Positions 632-40,543 of a stretch of DNA of 64,000 nt are shown piece by piece (positions within the stretch are counted from its first letter, which is position 1; every line of letters begins with the position of its first letter). The notes under the pieces were generated by a model. It had not been told where the DNA came from, did no database searches, and saw only the letters and a program-made list of their open reading frames with translations. The stretch is taken from NCBI RefSeq assembly GCF_988243305.1, contig NZ_OZ547136.1. The stretch is one strand, 5' to 3'. Both the position numbers and the translations under genes were made by a program.

Positions 632-657
632 AAAAAACCCCGCCGTTGGCGGGGTTT
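632..657 (-). terminator. Rho-independent terminator downstream of fliC
   Basis: GC hairpin ccccgccgttggcgggg (638-654) followed on the minus strand by a U-run (A-run 632-637 on plus), just 3' of the fliC stop. Confidence 0.7.
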
Positions 658-673
658 GAGCGATAAGTGTAAA

Positions 674-2134
674 TTAACGCAGCAGAGACAGTACGTTCTG
701 CGTGGTCTGGTTAGCCTGCGCCAGAACAGAGGTACCCGCTTGTTGCAGGATCTGCGCACGAGACATGTTAGACACTTCGGTCGCGTAGTCAGCATCTTCG
801 ATACGGCTACGGGCAGAAGACAGGTTGTTTACGGTGTTGCCAAGGTTGGTGATAGCAGAGTCGAAACGGTTTTGTACTGCACCGAGGTCAGAACGCAGAT
901 TGTCAACTTTAGCCAATGCCTTGTCGATGGTTTCGAGCGGGTTGGTAGTAGATTGCAACGATTTTGCTGCATCTTCTTTTACCAGAATCGGGCTACCACC
1001 TTCTGATTTGCTCAGATACATAGTTTTGCCAAGCCCAGTTACTGTCTTACCATCAGCGCTAACTTCATAATCAGCGCCATTTACAACTAAAGAACTACCC
1101 ACTTTTTTAGCGTTATTTAAGTCCAGATCCGATGCTGTAGCGGCTTTGTTTTCAACCTTAGTTGTAGTGAACTGACCTGCACTATTTTTGTAAACAGGAT
1201 CAGACGTTTTTAATGTTGCGTCCTTCCCTGTCGCATCAATAGTAAAGGTTACATCTTTGCCATCAATATTAGCGGTTAGAGTGCCGTTACCACTGCCATC
1301 AAATGCATCAGTGCCTTTGTTGGTGAAAGTAATACCTTGGTATTTAATTGAGGCATCTTTAGCTAAAGAAACTGCGGCTTTTGCAAGCCCAGTCGCATCA
1401 ATACCTGTACCACCGACTTTTGTATCACTCTTAGTAGTCAGAGAACCATCGGTAGCGCTAACAAAAATTGCGTCACCATCCTCATTTTGAACTGCTCCAC
1501 TATCTACATTAACAGTATAGTTATCAGTACCGTTAATTTGATAATTATCAGTACCTGTCGCTTTAAATTTAGAAATCAGGTCACTGCCAGTTGCTTTCTG
1601 CGCGCCATCGATATTAAAGCCGTCCAGGCCGAGAGTTTTCGCATCAATTTTTGCCAGATTGATAGTGATGGTTTCCCCATCATTAGCACCAACCTGAATT
1701 TTCATTTCATTATTTTCGGCAAGGACTTTCACGCCGTTAAACTGAGTTTGCTCAGATACACGGTCAATTTCTTCCAGACGTTGAGTAATTTCTGCCTGAA
1801 TAGAAGAAAGATCGCTGTCAGAGTTAGTACCGTTAGTTGCCTGAACAGTCAGTTCACGTACACGCTGCAGGTTGTTGTTAATTTCATTCAGCGCACCTTC
1901 AGTAGTCTGCGCAACAGAAATACCATCATTCGCGTTACGGGAAGCCTGAGTCAGACCTTTAATATTTGCCGTAAAACGGTTAGCAATCGCCTGACCTGCT
2001 GCGTCATCTTTAGCACTGTTAATACGCAGGCCAGAAGAGAGACGCTCAATAGCAGAGCTAAGAGAAGACTGAGATTTGTTCAGGTTATTCTGGGTCAACA
2101 GCGACAGGCTGTTTGTATTAATGACTTGTGCCAT
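674..2134 (-). CDS. fliC: Flagellin, 486 aa
   Basis: Conserved flagellin N-terminus MAQVINTNSLSLLTQNNLNKSQSSLSSAIERLSSGLRINSAKDDAAGQAIANRFT and C-terminus ...TTQNVLSLLR, with a variable central domain. Confidence 0.95.
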   Translation of the reverse strand: MAQVINTNSLSLLTQNNLNKSQSSLSSAIERLSSGLRINSAKDDAAGQAIANRFTANIKGLTQASRNANDGISVAQTTEGALNEINNNLQRVRELTVQATNGTNSDSDLSSIQAEITQRLEEIDRVSEQTQFNGVKVLAENNEMKIQVGANDGETITINLAKIDAKTLGLDGFNIDGAQKATGSDLISKFKATGTDNYQINGTDNYTVNVDSGAVQNEDGDAIFVSATDGSLTTKSDTKVGGTGIDATGLAKAAVSLAKDASIKYQGITFTNKGTDAFDGSGNGTLTANIDGKDVTFTIDATGKDATLKTSDPVYKNSAGQFTTTKVENKAATASDLDLNNAKKVGSSLVVNGADYEVSADGKTVTGLGKTMYLSKSEGGSPILVKEDAAKSLQSTTNPLETIDKALAKVDNLRSDLGAVQNRFDSAITNLGNTVNNLSSARSRIEDADYATEVSNMSRAQILQQAGTSVLAQANQTTQNVLSLLR

Positions 2135-2203
2135 GATCTTTTCCTTATCAATTACAACTTGATGTTATTGGGCTGTTGCCCACGGTTTCTCACCGTACCC
2201 CTT

Positions 2204-2230
2204 GTATCGGCACCTGAATTTCGAACTTTA
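2204..2230 (-). promoter_or_regulatory. Sigma-28 (class 3) promoter of fliC
   Basis: On the minus strand TAAAGTTC, 11-nt spacer, GCCGATAC, close to the TAAAGTTT-N11-GCCGATAA consensus, upstream of the fliC start. Confidence 0.65.
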
Positions 2231-2323
2231 GAAAATTTTAGTTTCTCTCCTGTTTTTTCTTAACGGCTGAAATATCCGTAATATACAACTCTACTCTGCG
2301 CATCATCTTCGTGAATCAACTAT

Positions 2324-2350
2324 TAAACTTTGCGCACAAATTGCCGATAA
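2324..2350 (+). promoter_or_regulatory. Sigma-28 (class 3) promoter of fliD
   Basis: TAAACTTT, 11-nt spacer, GCCGATAA, about 40 nt upstream of the fliD ATG. Confidence 0.7.
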
Positions 2351-2388
2351 CCCGCTTATCTACTGTTTGCAATCAAAAGGAATTAGGT

Positions 2389-3801
2389 ATGGCTTCATTT
2401 ACATCTCTTGGCGTTGGTTCGAATCTGCCGCTGGATACATTGCTAAACAACCTGACCATCGCTGAAAAAAAACGCTTAAACCCAATTACTCAGCAACAGA
2501 GTGACAACACCGCACGTCTGACAGCCTATGGCACATTAAAAAGTGCATTAGAAAAATTCCAGACTGCAAATACTGCGTTAAATAAAGCCGATCTGTTCAA
2601 AAGCACTACCGTTACCAGTAGCAATGAAGACCTTAAAGTTTCCACCGAAGCAGGTGCTGCCCCCGGTATCTATACCATCAGCGTAACCCAACTGGCGCAG
2701 GCGCAATCTTTACGAACTGATTCCCCGACAATCATTGCATCAACAAAAGATGCACTGGGTGATGAGTCATCAGATACACGCACAATAAAAATTACCCAAG
2801 ACGGCCGTAAAGAGCCGCTGGAAATCAAGCTCAATAAAGATCAGACGTCATTGGATGAGATCAGCAAAACCATTAACGATGCCGATAGTGGAATTTCCGC
2901 TAGTATCGTTAAAGTCAAAGATGGTGACTATCAATTGGTATTGACCGCCAGTGAAGGTCTGGCCAATAAAATGACCATATCTGTTGAGGGTGACAGTAAA
3001 TTAAATGATCTGCTGGCTTATGACAGCAAGACCAACACCGGGAATATGAAGGAACTGGTTAACGCGCAAAATGCACAGCTAAACGTTAACGGTATCGATA
3101 TTGAACGTTCAAGTAACAAAATTACCGATGCTCCTCAGGGAGTGACTCTCGATTTGACCAAAAAAGTCACTGACGTCCGGGTCACGGTGACAAAAAGCAA
3201 CGATAAAGCAACCGAAGCAATTAAAGGCTGGGTGGATTCATATAACTCCCTCATTGACACCTTTAACACCCTGACAAAATATAAAGAAGTAGACCCAGGT
3301 GCTGAAGCACAAGATAAAAATAATGGTGCACTTCTCGGAGACAGCGTTGTACGTACAATTCAAAGCGGCATCCGCGCACAATTTGCAAACGGTGCCAGCG
3401 ACGGTGCCTTCAAAACATTAAACGAGATCGGGATTAAGCAGGACGGCACGACGGGTAAGCTGAAAATTGATGATGATAAACTCAAAAAAGTCCTGAATGA
3501 AAATACAGCATCCGTACGTGAATTGCTGGTAGGCGATGGTAAAGAAACAGGAATTACCACCAAAATTGCCACCGAGGTAAAAGGTTACCTTGCCGATGAT
3601 GGCATTATTGATAGCGCACAGGACAGTATTAACGCCACACTGAAAAAACTAACCAAACAGTATCTATCCGTCAGTGCCAGCATTGATGACACCGTGGCGC
3701 GTTACACTGCACAGTTTACGCAATTAGATACCATGATGAGCAAACTGAATAACACCAGTACCTATCTCAGCCAACAATTTACTGCAATGAGTAATTCCTG
3801 A
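2389..3801 (+). CDS. fliD: Flagellar filament capping protein FliD
   Basis: ATG at 2389 gives MASFTSLGVGSNLPLDTLL...; size and position after fliC match FliD; the track ORF from 2311 is an upstream extension. Confidence 0.9.
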   Translation: MASFTSLGVGSNLPLDTLLNNLTIAEKKRLNPITQQQSDNTARLTAYGTLKSALEKFQTANTALNKADLFKSTTVTSSNEDLKVSTEAGAAPGIYTISVTQLAQAQSLRTDSPTIIASTKDALGDESSDTRTIKITQDGRKEPLEIKLNKDQTSLDEISKTINDADSGISASIVKVKDGDYQLVLTASEGLANKMTISVEGDSKLNDLLAYDSKTNTGNMKELVNAQNAQLNVNGIDIERSSNKITDAPQGVTLDLTKKVTDVRVTVTKSNDKATEAIKGWVDSYNSLIDTFNTLTKYKEVDPGAEAQDKNNGALLGDSVVRTIQSGIRAQFANGASDGAFKTLNEIGIKQDGTTGKLKIDDDKLKKVLNENTASVRELLVGDGKETGITTKIATEVKGYLADDGIIDSAQDSINATLKKLTKQYLSVSASIDDTVARYTAQFTQLDTMMSKLNNTSTYLSQQFTAMSNS

Positions 3802-3815
3802 TCACGGAGGTCAGC

Positions 3816-4226
3816 ATGTATACCGCGAGCGGCTCAAAAGCCTATGCACAAATTGGCGTCGAAAGCGCCGTAATGAGCGCCAGCCAGCAGCAGCTGGTCA
3901 CCATGCTATTTGATGGAGTGCTGAGCGCACTGGTTAGAGCGCGCCTGTTTATGCAGGACAACAATCAGCAAGGCAAAGGCGTCTCTTTGTCAAAAGCGAT
4001 CAACATCATTGAGAACGGACTGCGGGTGAGTCTTGATGAAGAGAGCAAAGACGAATTAACCCAAAACTTGATTGCTCTTTATAGCTATATGGTCAGGCGC
4101 TTGCTGCAAGCCAATTTACGCAACGATGTCTCCGCAGTCGAAGAAGTGGAAGCATTAATGCGTAATATTGCCGATGCCTGGAAAGAGTCGTTACTCTCCC
4201 CTTCTTTGATTCAGGACCCAGTCTGA
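3816..4226 (+). CDS. fliS: Flagellin-specific chaperone FliS
   Basis: 136 aa [34 protein letters not shown]...; fliDST operon position. Confidence 0.92.
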
Positions 4227-4591: not shown

Positions 4592-4668
4592 ATCTGAACG
4601 AGTCGATGGCTCGCGAATAATCCGATTACGGCTACGCTTCTAATGTTCCCCTTGAATGGAGTCGAAGA

Positions 4669-6156
4669 ATGCGTAATCCCACGCTGTTACAATGTTTTCA
4701 CTGGTATTACCCGGAAGGCGGTAAGCTCTGGCCTGAACTGGCCGAGCGCGCCGACGGTTTTAATGATATTGGTATCAATATGGTCTGGTTGCCGCCCGCC
4801 TATAAAGGCGCATCGGGCGGGTATTCGGTCGGCTACGACTCCTATGATTTATTTGATTTAGGCGAGTTTGATCAGAAAGGCAGCATCCCTACTAAATATG
4901 GCGATAAAGCACAACTGCTGGCCGCCATTGACGCTCTGAAACGTAATGACATTGCGGTGCTGTTGGACGTGGTAGTCAACCACAAAATGGGCGCGGATGA
5001 AAAAGAAGCTATTCGCGTGCAGCGTGTAAATGCTGATGACCGTACGCAAATTGACGAAGAAATCATAGAGTGCAAAGGCTGGACGCGTTACACCTTCCCC
5101 GCCCGTGCCGGGCAATACTCGCAGTTTATCTGGGATTTCAAATGTTTTAGCGGTATCGACCATATCGAAAACCCTGATGAAGATGGCATTTTTAAAATTG
5201 TTAACGACTACACCGGTGAAGGCTGGAACGATCAGGTTGATGATGAACTCGGTAATTTCGATTATCTGATGGGTGAGAATATCGATTTCCGCAATCATGC
5301 CGTGACGGAAGAGATTAAATACTGGGCGCGCTGGGTGATGGAACAAACACAATGCGACGGTTTTCGTCTTGATGCGGTCAAACATATTCCGGCGTGGTTT
5401 TATAAAGAGTGGATCGAACACGTACAGGAAGTTGCGCCAAAGCCGCTGTTTATTGTGGCGGAGTACTGGTCGCATGAAGTCGATAAACTGCAAACGTATA
5501 TTGATCAGGTGGAAGGCAAAACCATGCTGTTCGATGCGCCGCTGCAGATGAAATTCCATGAAGCATCGCGCATGGGGCGCGACTACGACATGACGCAGAT
5601 TTTCACGGGTACATTAGTGGAAGCCGATCCTTTCCACGCCGTGACGCTCGTTGCCAATCACGACACCCAACCGTTGCAAGCCCTCGAAGCGCCGGTCGAA
5701 CCGTGGTTTAAACCGCTGGCGTATGCCTTAATTTTGTTGCGGGAAAATGGCGTTCCTTCGGTATTCTATCCGGACCTCTACGGTGCGCATTACGAAGATG
5801 TCGGTGGTGACGGGCAAACCTATCCGATAGATATGCCAATAATCGAACAGCTTGATGAGTTAATTCTCGCCCGTCAGCGTTTCGCCCACGGTGTACAGAC
5901 GTTATTTTTCGACCATCCGAACTGCATTGCCTTTAGTCGCAGTGGCACTGACGAATATCCCGGCTGCGTGGTGGTCATGTCGAACGGGGATGATGGCGAA
6001 AAAACCATTCATCTGGGAGAGAATTACGGCAATAAAACCTGGCGTGATTTTCTGGGGAATCGGCAAGAGAGCGTAGTGACCGACGAAAACGGCGAAGCGA
6101 CCTTCTTTTGCAACGGCGGCAGCGTCAGCGTGTGGGTTATCGAAGAGGTGATTTAA
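4669..6156 (+). CDS. amyA: Cytoplasmic alpha-amylase
   Basis: 495 aa GH13-type sequence (…[14 protein letters not shown]…[11 protein letters not shown]…) in the conserved position after fliT. Confidence 0.9.
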
Positions 6157-9000: not shown

Positions 9001-9393
9001 TAAGCCAGGAGACTATTGATCAATAATACTGCGTCATAAGAAATCTCTATTAGACAAAGTAGACGCTCCTTCCACATGCGCCACAAGAAACCTCTATTCC
9101 AGTGACACAATTACGCCTGATTATTTCCCTAGCCCGGAATATGAATAAAAACATCAACAAAGATTAAATTATTCAAACGTTACTGTTGCGTCTGCGGTCG
9201 TAGCAACATTCGACGTGGTGATGAGTGTTAAAAGAGACACTCTGATGTTCAGAGGGGTTATCGCGTTTACGGATCGTGGATGGCAGAAAACTTTCAGGAT
9301 CAGGTATCCATTTTAAACCAGAAATTGAGTGAGTTTGCCCCATCCATGCCCCAAGCGGTGAGATTGGAAGTAATTAACAACAGGTTACAAAAC

Positions 9394-37173: not shown

Positions 37174-37809
37174 ATGCGTCTGACAGCAAAACAGGTGACA
37201 TGGCTGAAAGTTTGCCTGCATCTTGCCGGATTGTTGCCGTTTCTCTGGCTGGTCTGGGTGATTAATCACGGTGGACTGGGTGCCGATCCGGTGAAAGATA
37301 TTCAGCATTTTACCGGTCGCACTGCACTGAAATTTTTGCTGGCGACCTTGTTAATCACACCTCTGGCACGCTACGCAAAACAGCCGTTATTGATACGCAC
37401 TCGCCGCCTGTTAGGATTATGGTGCTTTGCCTGGGCGACACTGCATTTAACCAGTTACGCATTGCTGGAGCTGGGCGTGAATAATCTGGCGTTATTAGGT
37501 AAGGAGTTAATTACCCGGCCTTATTTAACGTTAGGAATTATCAGCTGGGTTATTTTGCTTGCTTTAGCGTTCACTTCAACCCAGTCGATGCAGCGAAAAC
37601 TCGGCAAACACTGGCAACAGTTGCATAACTTCGTCTATCTTGTCGCGATCCTGGCCCCAATACATTATCTGTGGTCAGTGAAGATTATTTCACCGCAGCC
37701 ACTCATCTACGCTGGGCTGGCTGTACTGCTTTTAGCCTTACGGTATAAGAAGTTGCTTTCCCTTTTCAACCGGTTACGCAAGCAGGCCCACAACAAATTA
37801 TCTCTATAA
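37174..37809 (+). CDS. msrQ: Heme-binding membrane subunit MsrQ (YedZ)
   Basis: 211-aa polytopic membrane protein immediately after msrP. Confidence 0.9.
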
Positions 37810-37837
37810 CTTCATATTGCCGACAAACTTCGCGTTA

Positions 37838-37875
37838 TCCCGGCCGGATGCGGCGCGAGCTCCCTATCCGGCCCA
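37838..37875. repeat. REP (repetitive extragenic palindromic) element
   Basis: GCCGGATGCGGCGCGAGCTCCCTATCCGGCC resembles the E. coli REP consensus, in the msrQ-zinT intergenic region. Confidence 0.6.
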
Positions 37876-38011
37876 CACAGATCGCATCAAGTTATGTTTC
37901 GTTTGTCATCAACCTTTCATCACCAGAATAATTTATTTTATTTCAATAAGATAGTTCAATACACCTGAGAATACCATGCTCTCATTTCCTAATGAGTTGT
38001 TGCATTTTTTC

Positions 38012-38066: not shown

Positions 38067-38717
38067 TTGGCGATTCGTCTTCATAAACTGGCTGTTGCTT
38101 TAGGTGTCTTTATTGTTAGCGCTCCTGCCTTTTCGCATGGTCATCATTCTCATGGCAAACCCTTAACAGAGGTCGAACAAAAAGCTGCTAATGGTGTTTT
38201 TGATGATACCAATGTACAAAACCGAACGCTCAGTGACTGGGATGGAGTCTGGCAATCCGTTTACCCTTTACTGCAAAGTGGCAAACTTGATCCCGTCTTT
38301 CAGAAGAAAGCGGATGCAGATAAAACCAAAACATTTGCTGAAATTAAAGATTATTATCGCAAAGGTTATGCGACAGATATCGAAATGATTGGCATTGAGG
38401 ACGGCATTGTCGAATTCCATAGAAATAATGAAACAACATCCTGTAAATATGATTACGATGGATACAAAATACTCACCTATAAATCAGGCAAGAAAGGCGT
38501 TCGTTACTTATTCGAATGTAAAGATCCTGAAAGCAAAGCCCCTAAATATATACAATTTAGCGATCATATAATTGCACCACGAAAATCATCTCATTTTCAC
38601 ATTTTTATGGGTAATGATACCCAACAGTCTTTATTGAATGAAATGGAAAACTGGCCAACGTATTATCCCTATCAGTTGAGTAGCGAAGAAGTGGTCGAGG
38701 AGATGATGTCTCATTGA
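38067..38717 (+). CDS. zinT: Periplasmic zinc/cadmium-binding protein ZinT (YodA); TTG start
   Basis: 216 aa [47 protein letters not shown]... with His-rich metal-binding N-terminus. Confidence 0.92.
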
Positions 38718-38805
38718 TTTTTTTGCGCTGACTTCAGTTATTTAACAGAACAGTGCCTGGTAGTAACAACAATAATTTACCAAGACAAATAAGTAAGACA
38801 AACTC

Positions 38806-38838
38806 AGACACGCTCATACTTGAGTCGTGTCTTTTTTA
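38806..38838 (+). terminator. Rho-independent terminator downstream of zinT
   Basis: Hairpin gacacg...cgtgtc followed by TTTTTTATT. Confidence 0.55.
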
Positions 38839-39386
38839 TTATGTCTGTAGAAAAAAACTGCGAAAAAGGCGAACAATAAATACACAACTCAGCCATACAG
38901 ACTAGCAGCGCAAATGTTTCCAGGAGCAAGTCATCTGTCATGGTAAAACTAACCATAAATATAGGTTAATTTTGATGTTTAAACCTTTTTTACTTGTTAG
39001 TATGATACAAAGGCTTTCAAAAAAGCTGGGAAATTCAACAACTCTTGGAAATTATGGACTTTGTCCCGCAGCTTTAATCTGACGGCCGCGTTCCTTTTTT
39101 GGCTCAATTATTGACCCCTTCTCTACGCAACTTCAGTTCCCGCCAGCAACTTTGCGGCAGTTTCATAGGATCAATGTCTAAAAGAATAATGGTGACCGAT
39201 AAGAAAACGACTGAATAACTGTAGATTTTCGCTCGAAACCTTCCTGTCAGACCCATAGCGAATCAAGTGCTGAATGTCACAGTATCGAACAGAAAACAGT
39301 GACGATCTAACCCTTCAAGAATATTCTACGAATGTTCTGTTTAGGAAAAGCAAGGCGGGAAGTCGAGAGATAAGTCATTGATAAAG

Positions 39387-39476
39387 TGGCGGAGAGAGGG
39401 GGATTTGAACCCCCGGTAGAGTTGCCCCTACTCCGGTTTTCGAGACCGGTCCGTTCAGCCGCTCCGGCATCTCTCC
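39387..39476 (-). tRNA. serU: tRNA-Ser (anticodon CGA)
   Basis: Minus-strand GGAGAGATGCCGGAGCGGCTGAACGGACCGGTCTCGAAAACCGG...GGGGGTTCAAATCCCCCTCTCTCCGCCA with long variable arm and CGA in the anticodon loop. Confidence 0.9.
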
Positions 39477-39569
39477 GTTCAGATGGTTGCCATGATGCCA
39501 GGAAATTTGGCATTTTAACAGTCCCTGTCCGTGCAATTTTGTTCAAGTGACGAGTTTGCGAGCAAAACG

Positions 39570-40367
39570 ATGATTAAGTGGCCCTGGAAAGTACAAGAAT
39601 CAGCACATCAAACTGCCCTTCCCTGGCAGGAAGCACTATCGATCCCCCTTTTAACGTGTCTGACAGAACAGGAACAAAGCAAATTGGTCGCTCTTGCCGA
39701 ACGTTTTTTACAGCAAAAACGGCTTGTTCCTTTACAGGGCTTTGAGCTGAATTCATTAAGAAGCTGCCGGATAGCACTTCTATTTTGCCTGCCCGTTCTG
39801 GAGTTAGGACTGGAATGGCTGGATGGTTTTCATGAAGTCTTAATTTATCCTGCGCCATTTGTGGTCGATGATGAATGGGAAGACGATATCGGTCTGGTGC
39901 ATAACCAACGTATTGTTCAGTCAGGTCAGAGCTGGCAGCAAGGGCCTATCGTTTTGAACTGGTTGGATATACAAGATTCTTTTGATGCTTCTGGTTTTAA
40001 CCTGATTATTCATGAAGTCGCTCATAAGCTGGACACCCGTAACGGCGATCGCGCCAGCGGAGTTCCCTTTATTTCGTTGCGTGAGGTTGCTGGCTGGGAA
40101 CACGATCTTCATGCTGCAATGAACAACATTCAGGAAGAAATCGAATTAGTTGGTGAGAATGCGGCGAGCATTGATGCTTATGCTGCCAGTGATCCTGCTG
40201 AATGTTTTGCCGTACTTTCTGAATATTTCTTTAGCGCCCCAGAACTTTTTGCTCCTCGTTTCCCTTCATTGTGGCAACGTTTCTGTCAATTTTATCAACA
40301 AGATCCTTTGCAGAGACTGCATCACGCTAATGATACAGACTCGTTTTCGGCGACGAATGTTCATTAA
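39570..40367 (+). CDS. mtfA: Mlc titration factor A (YeeI)
   Basis: 265 aa from [29 protein letters not shown]..., with HEVAH zinc-peptidase-like motif. Confidence 0.9.
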
Positions 40368-40467: not shown

Positions 40468-40543
40468 TCCTCTGTAGTTCAGTCGGTAGAACGGCGGACT
40501 GTTAATCCGTATGTCACTGGTTCGAGTCCAGTCAGAGGAGCCA
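40468..40543 (+). tRNA. asnT: tRNA-Asn (GUU); integration site of the High Pathogenicity Island
   Basis: TCCTCTGTAGTTCAGTCGGTAGAACGGCGGACTGTTAATCCGTATGTCACTGGTTCGAGTCCAGTCAGAGGAGCCA. Confidence 0.95.

Follow-up and report, generated by a model that had tools for sequence, protein, structure and literature searches.

Does the DNA between zinT and serU owe its lack of yodB to a loss, or is yodB an addition made elsewhere? In Escherichia coli K-12 MG1655 the annotated gene order is zinT (b1973), yodB (b1974), serU (b1975), mtfA, asnT, the preliminary description of the DNA analysed here having rightly placed yodB between zinT and serU, and yodB codes for a cytochrome b561 (PF01292, NF008566). 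The analysed DNA, a stretch of 64,000 nucleotides called the window below, has 669 bp from the zinT stop codon to serU (38718–39386, 37–39% GC), which had been described as a strain-specific deletion or alternative content next to a tRNA hot spot. According to the comparisons below, this interval very probably represents the ancestral, yodB-free version of the zinT–serU intergenic region; it would encode no protein and have three functional parts, namely, a zinT 3' untranslated region with its terminator, AT-rich filler, and the downstream flank of serU, which is the attB region.

Two versions of the interval

The left anchor of the interval is zinT (38067..38717, plus strand, 216 amino acids), an open reading frame annotated as zinT in the near-identical strain JE86-ST05, which differs from the window at three of 5,669 bases; msrQ lies upstream of it (37174–37809). 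On the right the interval is bounded by serU, the tRNA-Ser(CGA) gene (39387..39476, minus strand; identified by ARAGORN and by the Rfam tRNA model with 57 bits), a site of phage and island integration that is 100% identical to serU of K-12. It is followed by mtfA (39570..40367, plus strand), collinear with the annotated mtfA of K-12 and JE86-ST05, and by asnT, the tRNA-Asn(GTT) gene (40468..40543, plus strand), after which the yersiniabactin island begins. From fliA to asnT the window is collinear with K-12 at a baseline identity of 97.5%. Around the interval both have msrPQ and zinT upstream, and a 447-bp spacer, serU, mtfA and asnT downstream, at 95–98% identity; the zinT region is 96.7% identical across the gene and 96.8% in the coding sequence.

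Within this shared frame, the blastn alignment with K-12 ends exactly at the zinT stop codon (breakpoint 38717/38718) and restarts at 38940 (breakpoint 38939/38940). Between the breakpoints the window has 222 bp (38718..38939, 37.4% GC), whereas K-12 has 995 bp including the 531 bp of yodB, which makes the interval of the window 773 bp shorter than that of K-12. The remainder, 38940..39386 (38.9% GC), is the 447-bp non-coding spacer common to both E. coli alleles, 95.3% identical to K-12.

The interval had been described as non-coding, and this is borne out: the largest open reading frame contained in 38718–39386 has 50 amino acids, and a 79-amino-acid frame on the minus strand (39307–39546) overlaps the interval only by running antisense through the tRNA gene. 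Absence of a 60-codon frame is by itself unremarkable, since ~50% of the sequences simulated for the interval with a first-order Markov model lack one as well.

The absence of yodB, also noted earlier, is confirmed at both the protein and the DNA level. A tblastn search with K-12 YodB against the 900 nucleotides from 38601 to 39500 yields, in any frame, at best a 12-amino-acid match with E = 0.053, and with relaxed settings the best E-value elsewhere in the 64-kb window is 0.3, with no remnant. When the DNA of the K-12 yodB cassette (positions 1506–2500 of locus L001) is compared with the window by blastn with word size 7, only a 28-nucleotide hairpin is matched, at 87% identity, the rest being unalignable. 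By both tests the interval is neither a yodB gene nor a yodB pseudogene: the spacer of K-12 is not the same as that of the window, and no degraded yodB is detectable. As 222 bp of the window stand opposite 995 non-aligning bp of K-12 with no remnant of yodB, we are dealing with a replacement and not with a deletion that has left a scar. The hairpin is common to both alleles, with 13 + 9 identical nucleotides at an equal offset from the stop codon, and thus the K-12 cassette is not wholly foreign over its left 130 bp; the exchange of alleles may have involved more than one step.

The common hairpin is the one that the preliminary description had taken for a terminator, and its folding agrees with that reading. 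The feature (38806..38838, plus strand) consists of an 11-pair stem with one bulge, a 4-nucleotide loop and a U-run: the stem–loop occupies 38806–38832 and is followed by five T's (38833–38837), all within TTTTTATTAT, the U-run side being UUUUUAUUAU. Its folding energy is -17.9 kcal/mol (z = -4.0), a value not reached by any of 200 shuffled sequences. A simple terminator scan missed it because of the one-base bulge in the stem. All five sequences compared (the window, UTI89, WG5, K-12, and E. albertii) retain the hairpin, and in this small sample the 11 stem pairs include one compensatory change from A–U to G–C, in E. albertii, and one G–U change. With a stable GC-containing stem–loop and a U-run after the stop codon, and with the structure conserved among relatives, 38806–38838 is a predicted conserved intrinsic terminator of zinT.

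The homologous zinT hairpin of K-12 (positions 1598–1640 of L001, equivalent to 38806–38846 of the window) lies 93 nt after the stop codon, compared with 89 nt in the window. Its stem–loop is intact, but, unlike that of the window, it is followed by GUAUAUUAAU and the U-run is gone. Given this loss, read-through from zinT into yodB is conceivable in yodB-carrying strains.

Distribution of the two alleles and the older arrangement

E. coli is dimorphic after the zinT stop codon, having either the 222 bp or the non-homologous 995-bp yodB cassette. Of 5,426 complete E. coli genomes, 2,304 (~42%) have the yodB-free segment and 3,114 the K-12 cassette, frequencies that tell little about selection, as genome sampling is strongly biased to clinical clones. 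The shared 447-bp spacer is matched in 5,420 genomes, so that the two alleles are mutually exclusive and, taken together (2,304 + 3,114), nearly exhaustive. An allele present in some two fifths of the complete genomes is not strain-specific, and that part of the preliminary description has to be dropped. Carriers of the yodB-free allele include UTI89, ATCC 25922 and an O2:K2:H1 strain, and carriers of yodB include K-12, HS, O157:H7 and O111:H8; judged by the phylogroups of these strains, the division would roughly follow B2 and its relatives versus A, B1 and E. In UTI89, ATCC 25922 and JE86-ST05, as in the window, zinT is followed by 669 bp and serU with nothing annotated between them.

Within the yodB-free class, the 222 bp are 93–100% identical to those of the window (94.1% in UTI89), and the haplotype of UTI89 and WG5 differs from the window by ~6% over this segment. 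Among the matches listed, all full-length yodB cassettes are at least 98.4% identical to K-12. Judging from these identities, the yodB-free class is deep and more diverse than the yodB allele, the depth of the latter being that of the cassettes among the matches listed. The strain WG5 has MtfA identical to that of K-12 and yet carries the yodB-free allele; this combination means that recombination has shuffled the locus, and it blurs a simple tree with one gain. The whole pattern is an ordinary accessory-gene dimorphism, already plain in thousands of annotated genomes, and our literature search found no paper treating the yodB dimorphism.

Several individual records deserve mention. In E. coli HS-02, 43 bp are deleted within the 222-bp segment, and in E. 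coli FDAARGOS_1373 a deletion has brought fliP next to the serU flank, after which comes an island with an integrase, an HNH protein and an AAA-ATPase. The zinT–yodB–serU–mtfA region of E. coli is also found, 98–100% identical, on contigs filed as a Bacillota MAG and a Bacteroides MAG (L036 and L074), almost certainly as a result of binning contamination.

In order to polarise the two arrangements, loci outside E. coli are required. A scan for ZinT with one genome per species returned 80 loci, among which the synteny of msrQ, zinT and serU is kept only in Escherichia. No YodB match was found within 4 kb of zinT at any of 78 loci in other genera, nor at the loci outside E. coli. The Escherichia outgroups are two only, E. 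albertii and MOD1-EC7003, the latter with the informative segment deleted.

The informative outgroup is E. albertii NBRC 107761, in which zinT is followed by 567 bp and serU, and yodB is absent. Like the window, it has a homologous zinT 3' untranslated region, terminator, post-terminator sequence and serU flank; unlike the window, it lacks a piece of ~115 bp that is present in E. coli (38992..39105 according to the MAFFT alignment), and identity is 60–84%. The 222 bp of the window are homologous to positions 4652–4881 of the E. albertii locus (L004), with global-alignment z-scores against shuffled sequences of 5.3 and 6.6 before and after the hairpin, respectively. For the K-12 cassette the corresponding scores are 0.3–2.1 against the window and at most 0.7 against E. 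albertii. The second outgroup, the cryptic-clade Escherichia MOD1-EC7003, also has no yodB; here the zinT stop codon is joined to the equivalent of 39241 of the window, the equivalent of 38720–39240 is missing, and serU holds an island with a P4-type integrase (positions 4652–6207 of L003).

Since E. albertii aligns with the 222 bp and has no yodB, the yodB-free arrangement appears to be the older one and yodB a gain. Taking all this into account, we consider it very likely, on the basis of the alignments, that the yodB-free arrangement predates E. coli and that yodB is a derived insertion. It would have entered an ancestor of the K-12-like lineages once, in place of the 222 bp, and the cassette would later have spread or been reshuffled by recombination.

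An alternative reading takes both alleles to be ancient and to persist together in a trans-specific or balanced polymorphism, so that neither would be ancestral within E. coli. It would account for the intermediate frequency of both alleles, although the bias of sampling to clinical clones weakens these frequencies as a sign of selection. It would also fit the loose association of the alleles with their flanking haplotypes, as in WG5, and the rise in divergence beside the breakpoints, where, over 100 bp on either side, the window and K-12 are 93% and 92% identical, below the baseline of 97.5%. An ancient yodB allele, however, is at odds with the shallowness of the cassettes (at most 1.6% divergence among the matches listed) and with the lack of yodB at this place in the loci examined outside E. 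coli, and we regard such a polymorphism as unlikely. An import of foreign DNA into zinT was considered separately and rejected: when 30 variable zinT sites are polarised with the two outgroups, the 3' end of the K-12 gene has the ancestral states.

That the lineage of the window deleted yodB from a K-12-like ancestor, as the presence of yodB here in K-12 and the 773-bp difference in length might imply, is highly improbable: 222 bp without a counterpart in K-12 that align with E. albertii cannot arise by deletion, no YodB remnant is left, and the yodB-free allele, carried by 42% of complete genomes, exceeds the yodB allele in diversity.

Thus, of the preliminary description, "alternative content next to the tRNA hot spot" stands, while "deletion" does not, as the 222 bp replace 995 unrelated bp of K-12 and are homologous to the sequence after zinT in E. 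albertii. The direction of change is hereby corrected: with the yodB-free arrangement as the older state, yodB would be an accessory gene gained by K-12-like strains and not a core gene lost here, and K-12 is therefore a poor reference for the normal content of the zinT–serU locus. UTI89, ATCC 25922 and the strain of the window lack one of the CybB-family cytochromes b561.

YodB relatives in lambdoid prophages

The identity of YodB proteins is 99% within E. coli and then drops to at most 77% in the protein search and at most 80% in viral contigs. Partial hits of 84–87%, which could have represented diverged YodB in other Escherichia, were examined and turned out to be copies of the E. coli gene at this locus with frameshifts or to come from poor assemblies. 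The nearest relatives outside E. coli (72–80%) are accessory genes of lambdoid prophages. In four out of five proteins examined from genomes and a metagenome (72–77% identity), the gene lies on the opposite strand between holin/lysozyme/spanin genes and HNH/terminase genes; such prophage-borne relatives come from Citrobacter portucalensis, a metagenome, Hafnia paralvei, and Salmonella enterica. The same slot between lysis and terminase genes is occupied in 12–13 out of 14 IMG/VR contigs, across different types of terminase and lysozyme. The position between the lysis cassette and the terminase is the classical slot for morons, a class that includes bor of phage lambda.

The homology between yodB and the prophage loci extends, at the DNA level, ~88 bp upstream of the gene and includes a conserved motif. 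In every yodB-family gene examined, chromosomal or prophage-borne, the motif TAAGGATTTGTTAAG(C/G)TT occurs ~60 nt upstream of the start codon (positions 1788–1810 of the K-12 locus L001 and the aligned positions of L084, L088, L099, L100, and L101 in alignment A2). This motif probably serves as a common promoter or operator that moves together with the gene. In a neighbour-joining tree, built without support values, E. coli YodB groups with the prophage-borne clade, and more distant chromosomal versions are found in Salmonella and Citrobacter.

Taken together, the homologues from Citrobacter, Hafnia, Salmonella and IMG/VR are morons of lambdoid prophages, 72–80% identical to YodB, on the strand opposite to the late genes and with an upstream region of their own. 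E. coli yodB differs from them in its setting: it has the conserved upstream region but lies outside a prophage, alone between zinT and the serU spacer, with no phage gene adjoining. Hence yodB may have descended from a moron, though it is not one now, and the K-12 cassette would have come from a moron of a lambdoid phage, provided that transfer ran from phage to chromosome. A source for the parts of the cassette flanking yodB was sought as well. None of 80 zinT loci from other genera matches them, and the phage collection yields a single match, a record that contains E. coli chromosomal flank.

Another candidate origin, that yodB is a remnant of a prophage integrated into serU, was rejected for its geometry: such a prophage, as O157:H7 illustrates, has the 447-bp spacer on one side and serU on the other, whereas the yodB cassette lies beyond that spacer, 569 bp away from serU.

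Combined with the loss of the U-run in K-12, these data allow a fuller but only tentative picture, to which we assign a rather low probability: yodB of K-12 would be a domesticated moron that displaced the 222 bp and is co-transcribed in part with zinT, the 42% of strains without it ending zinT cleanly. If so, the domestication of a moron and its co-transcription with the zinc-starvation gene zinT would amount to a lineage-level difference in the wiring of periplasmic redox and metal stress beside msrPQ, and ~42% of E. coli would have to do without one of three CybB-family cytochromes b561. In any case, yodB is an uncharacterised gene of K-12, and the kinship of its product with phage morons offers a clue to what it does. 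The practical importance of the locus is small; what is added here is the polarity of the change, this kinship, and a long phage-shared block beside serU.

The serU flank and the wider neighbourhood

Besides the zinT terminator, the serU end is the one place where structured content of the interval could be substantiated. The block comprises 340 bp (39109..39448), that is, 278 bp of the spacer and the 3' 62 nt of serU, and is also present in the lambdoid phages mEp332, ev099, and PhiR70_1. The phage copies are 338–340 bp long, 96–97% identical to the window, and located between integrase and AraC-type regulator genes and the tail-fibre genes. They nest inside the diversity of E. coli alleles, the closest being WG5 (97.9–98.5%), with the E. 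albertii block at ~74%; the phages thus carry host-type sequence and not the reverse.

The gene serU has been named as a prophage insertion site, and serU and yodB as prophage borders (PMC9729726; PMC8190617). The Sp14, Stx1d and LT-IIb prophages found at serU are integrated in its 3' part, and in the O157:H7 Sp14 lysogen the prophage junction maps to 39447 of the window. An identity block with the phage attachment region and a prophage junction inside it are thus both seen here, and 39109–39448 is, as judged by these alignments, an extended attB/attP identity block, the predicted target region for serU-integrating lambdoid phages. At 340 bp, the arm of identity between the chromosome and mEp332 or ev099 is unusually long compared with Sp14, whose repeat has ~77 bp and reaches only 16 nt beyond the tRNA. 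Since mEp332-type phages share this block, the spacer belongs to the hot spot of integration at serU.

Unlike the Sp14, Stx1d and LT-IIb lysogens, the window has nothing integrated at serU: 38600–39386 contains no partial copy of serU (best matches of 7–8 nt), no repeats and no frame of integrase size. A scar of a prophage or island at serU was accordingly rejected as the origin of the interval, a tRNA repeat, other repeats and an integrase all being absent from it, while integration junctions at serU do show in MOD1-EC7003 and O157:H7.

Conservation of the spacer could also mean that it hides an unannotated small protein or small RNA, the candidates being the 130 bp beside serU and a minus-strand hairpin at 39017–39082. 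Indeed, 39257–39386 is 84.5% identical to E. albertii, conserved like the flanking genes, and the folding scores are z = -2.3 for 39241–39386 on the plus strand and z = -3.4 for 38940–39089 on the minus strand. Yet the Rfam scan reports only tRNAs and sub-threshold noise; promoter-like sites are at the chance level (six observed versus 4.7 expected); a 35-amino-acid frame at 39274–39381 loses its ATG in E. albertii and shows ~12 non-synonymous versus 2 synonymous changes by hand count, and the other small frames are broken by indels in E. albertii. The spacer thus yields no Rfam family and no frame with a coding pattern of substitutions, and MG1655 has no annotation within its 447 bp. As conservation beside serU is explained by 3' processing of the tRNA and by the role of this region as a phage attB flank, a hidden gene is very unlikely, and we retain the reading of the spacer as a non-coding serU flank.

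The minus-strand hairpin at 39017–39082, which has a U6 run, lies inside the ~115-bp piece, which was found in all E. coli alleles examined. The hairpin scores weakly in folding, at z = -2.05 for the window and z = -1.18 for K-12, and it could serve as a terminator of read-through from serU, although support for this is weak.

Other differences from K-12 are observed along the window. The fliC–fliD region (655–3839) has no megablast alignment with K-12, which suggests a different flagellin type, and the K-12 segments with yedL and with the yedN/intG pseudogene remnant are absent from the window (joins at 9059/9060 and 9123); these are further differences of the presence/absence kind within the same 40 kb. 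Beyond asnT (40705–64000), the window has a P4-type integrase of 421 amino acids, with a non-canonical start as annotated in JE86-ST05, then a salicylate synthase (TIGR03494, 682 bits), an AraC-type regulator and a frame of 2,041 amino acids, a layout that matches the yersiniabactin high-pathogenicity island; K-12 has yeeJ in place of this island. Closer to the interval, the msrQ–zinT intergenic region (37750–37999) is 89.6% identical to K-12 compared with the baseline of 97.5%, forming a peak of divergence upstream of the zinT promoter region.
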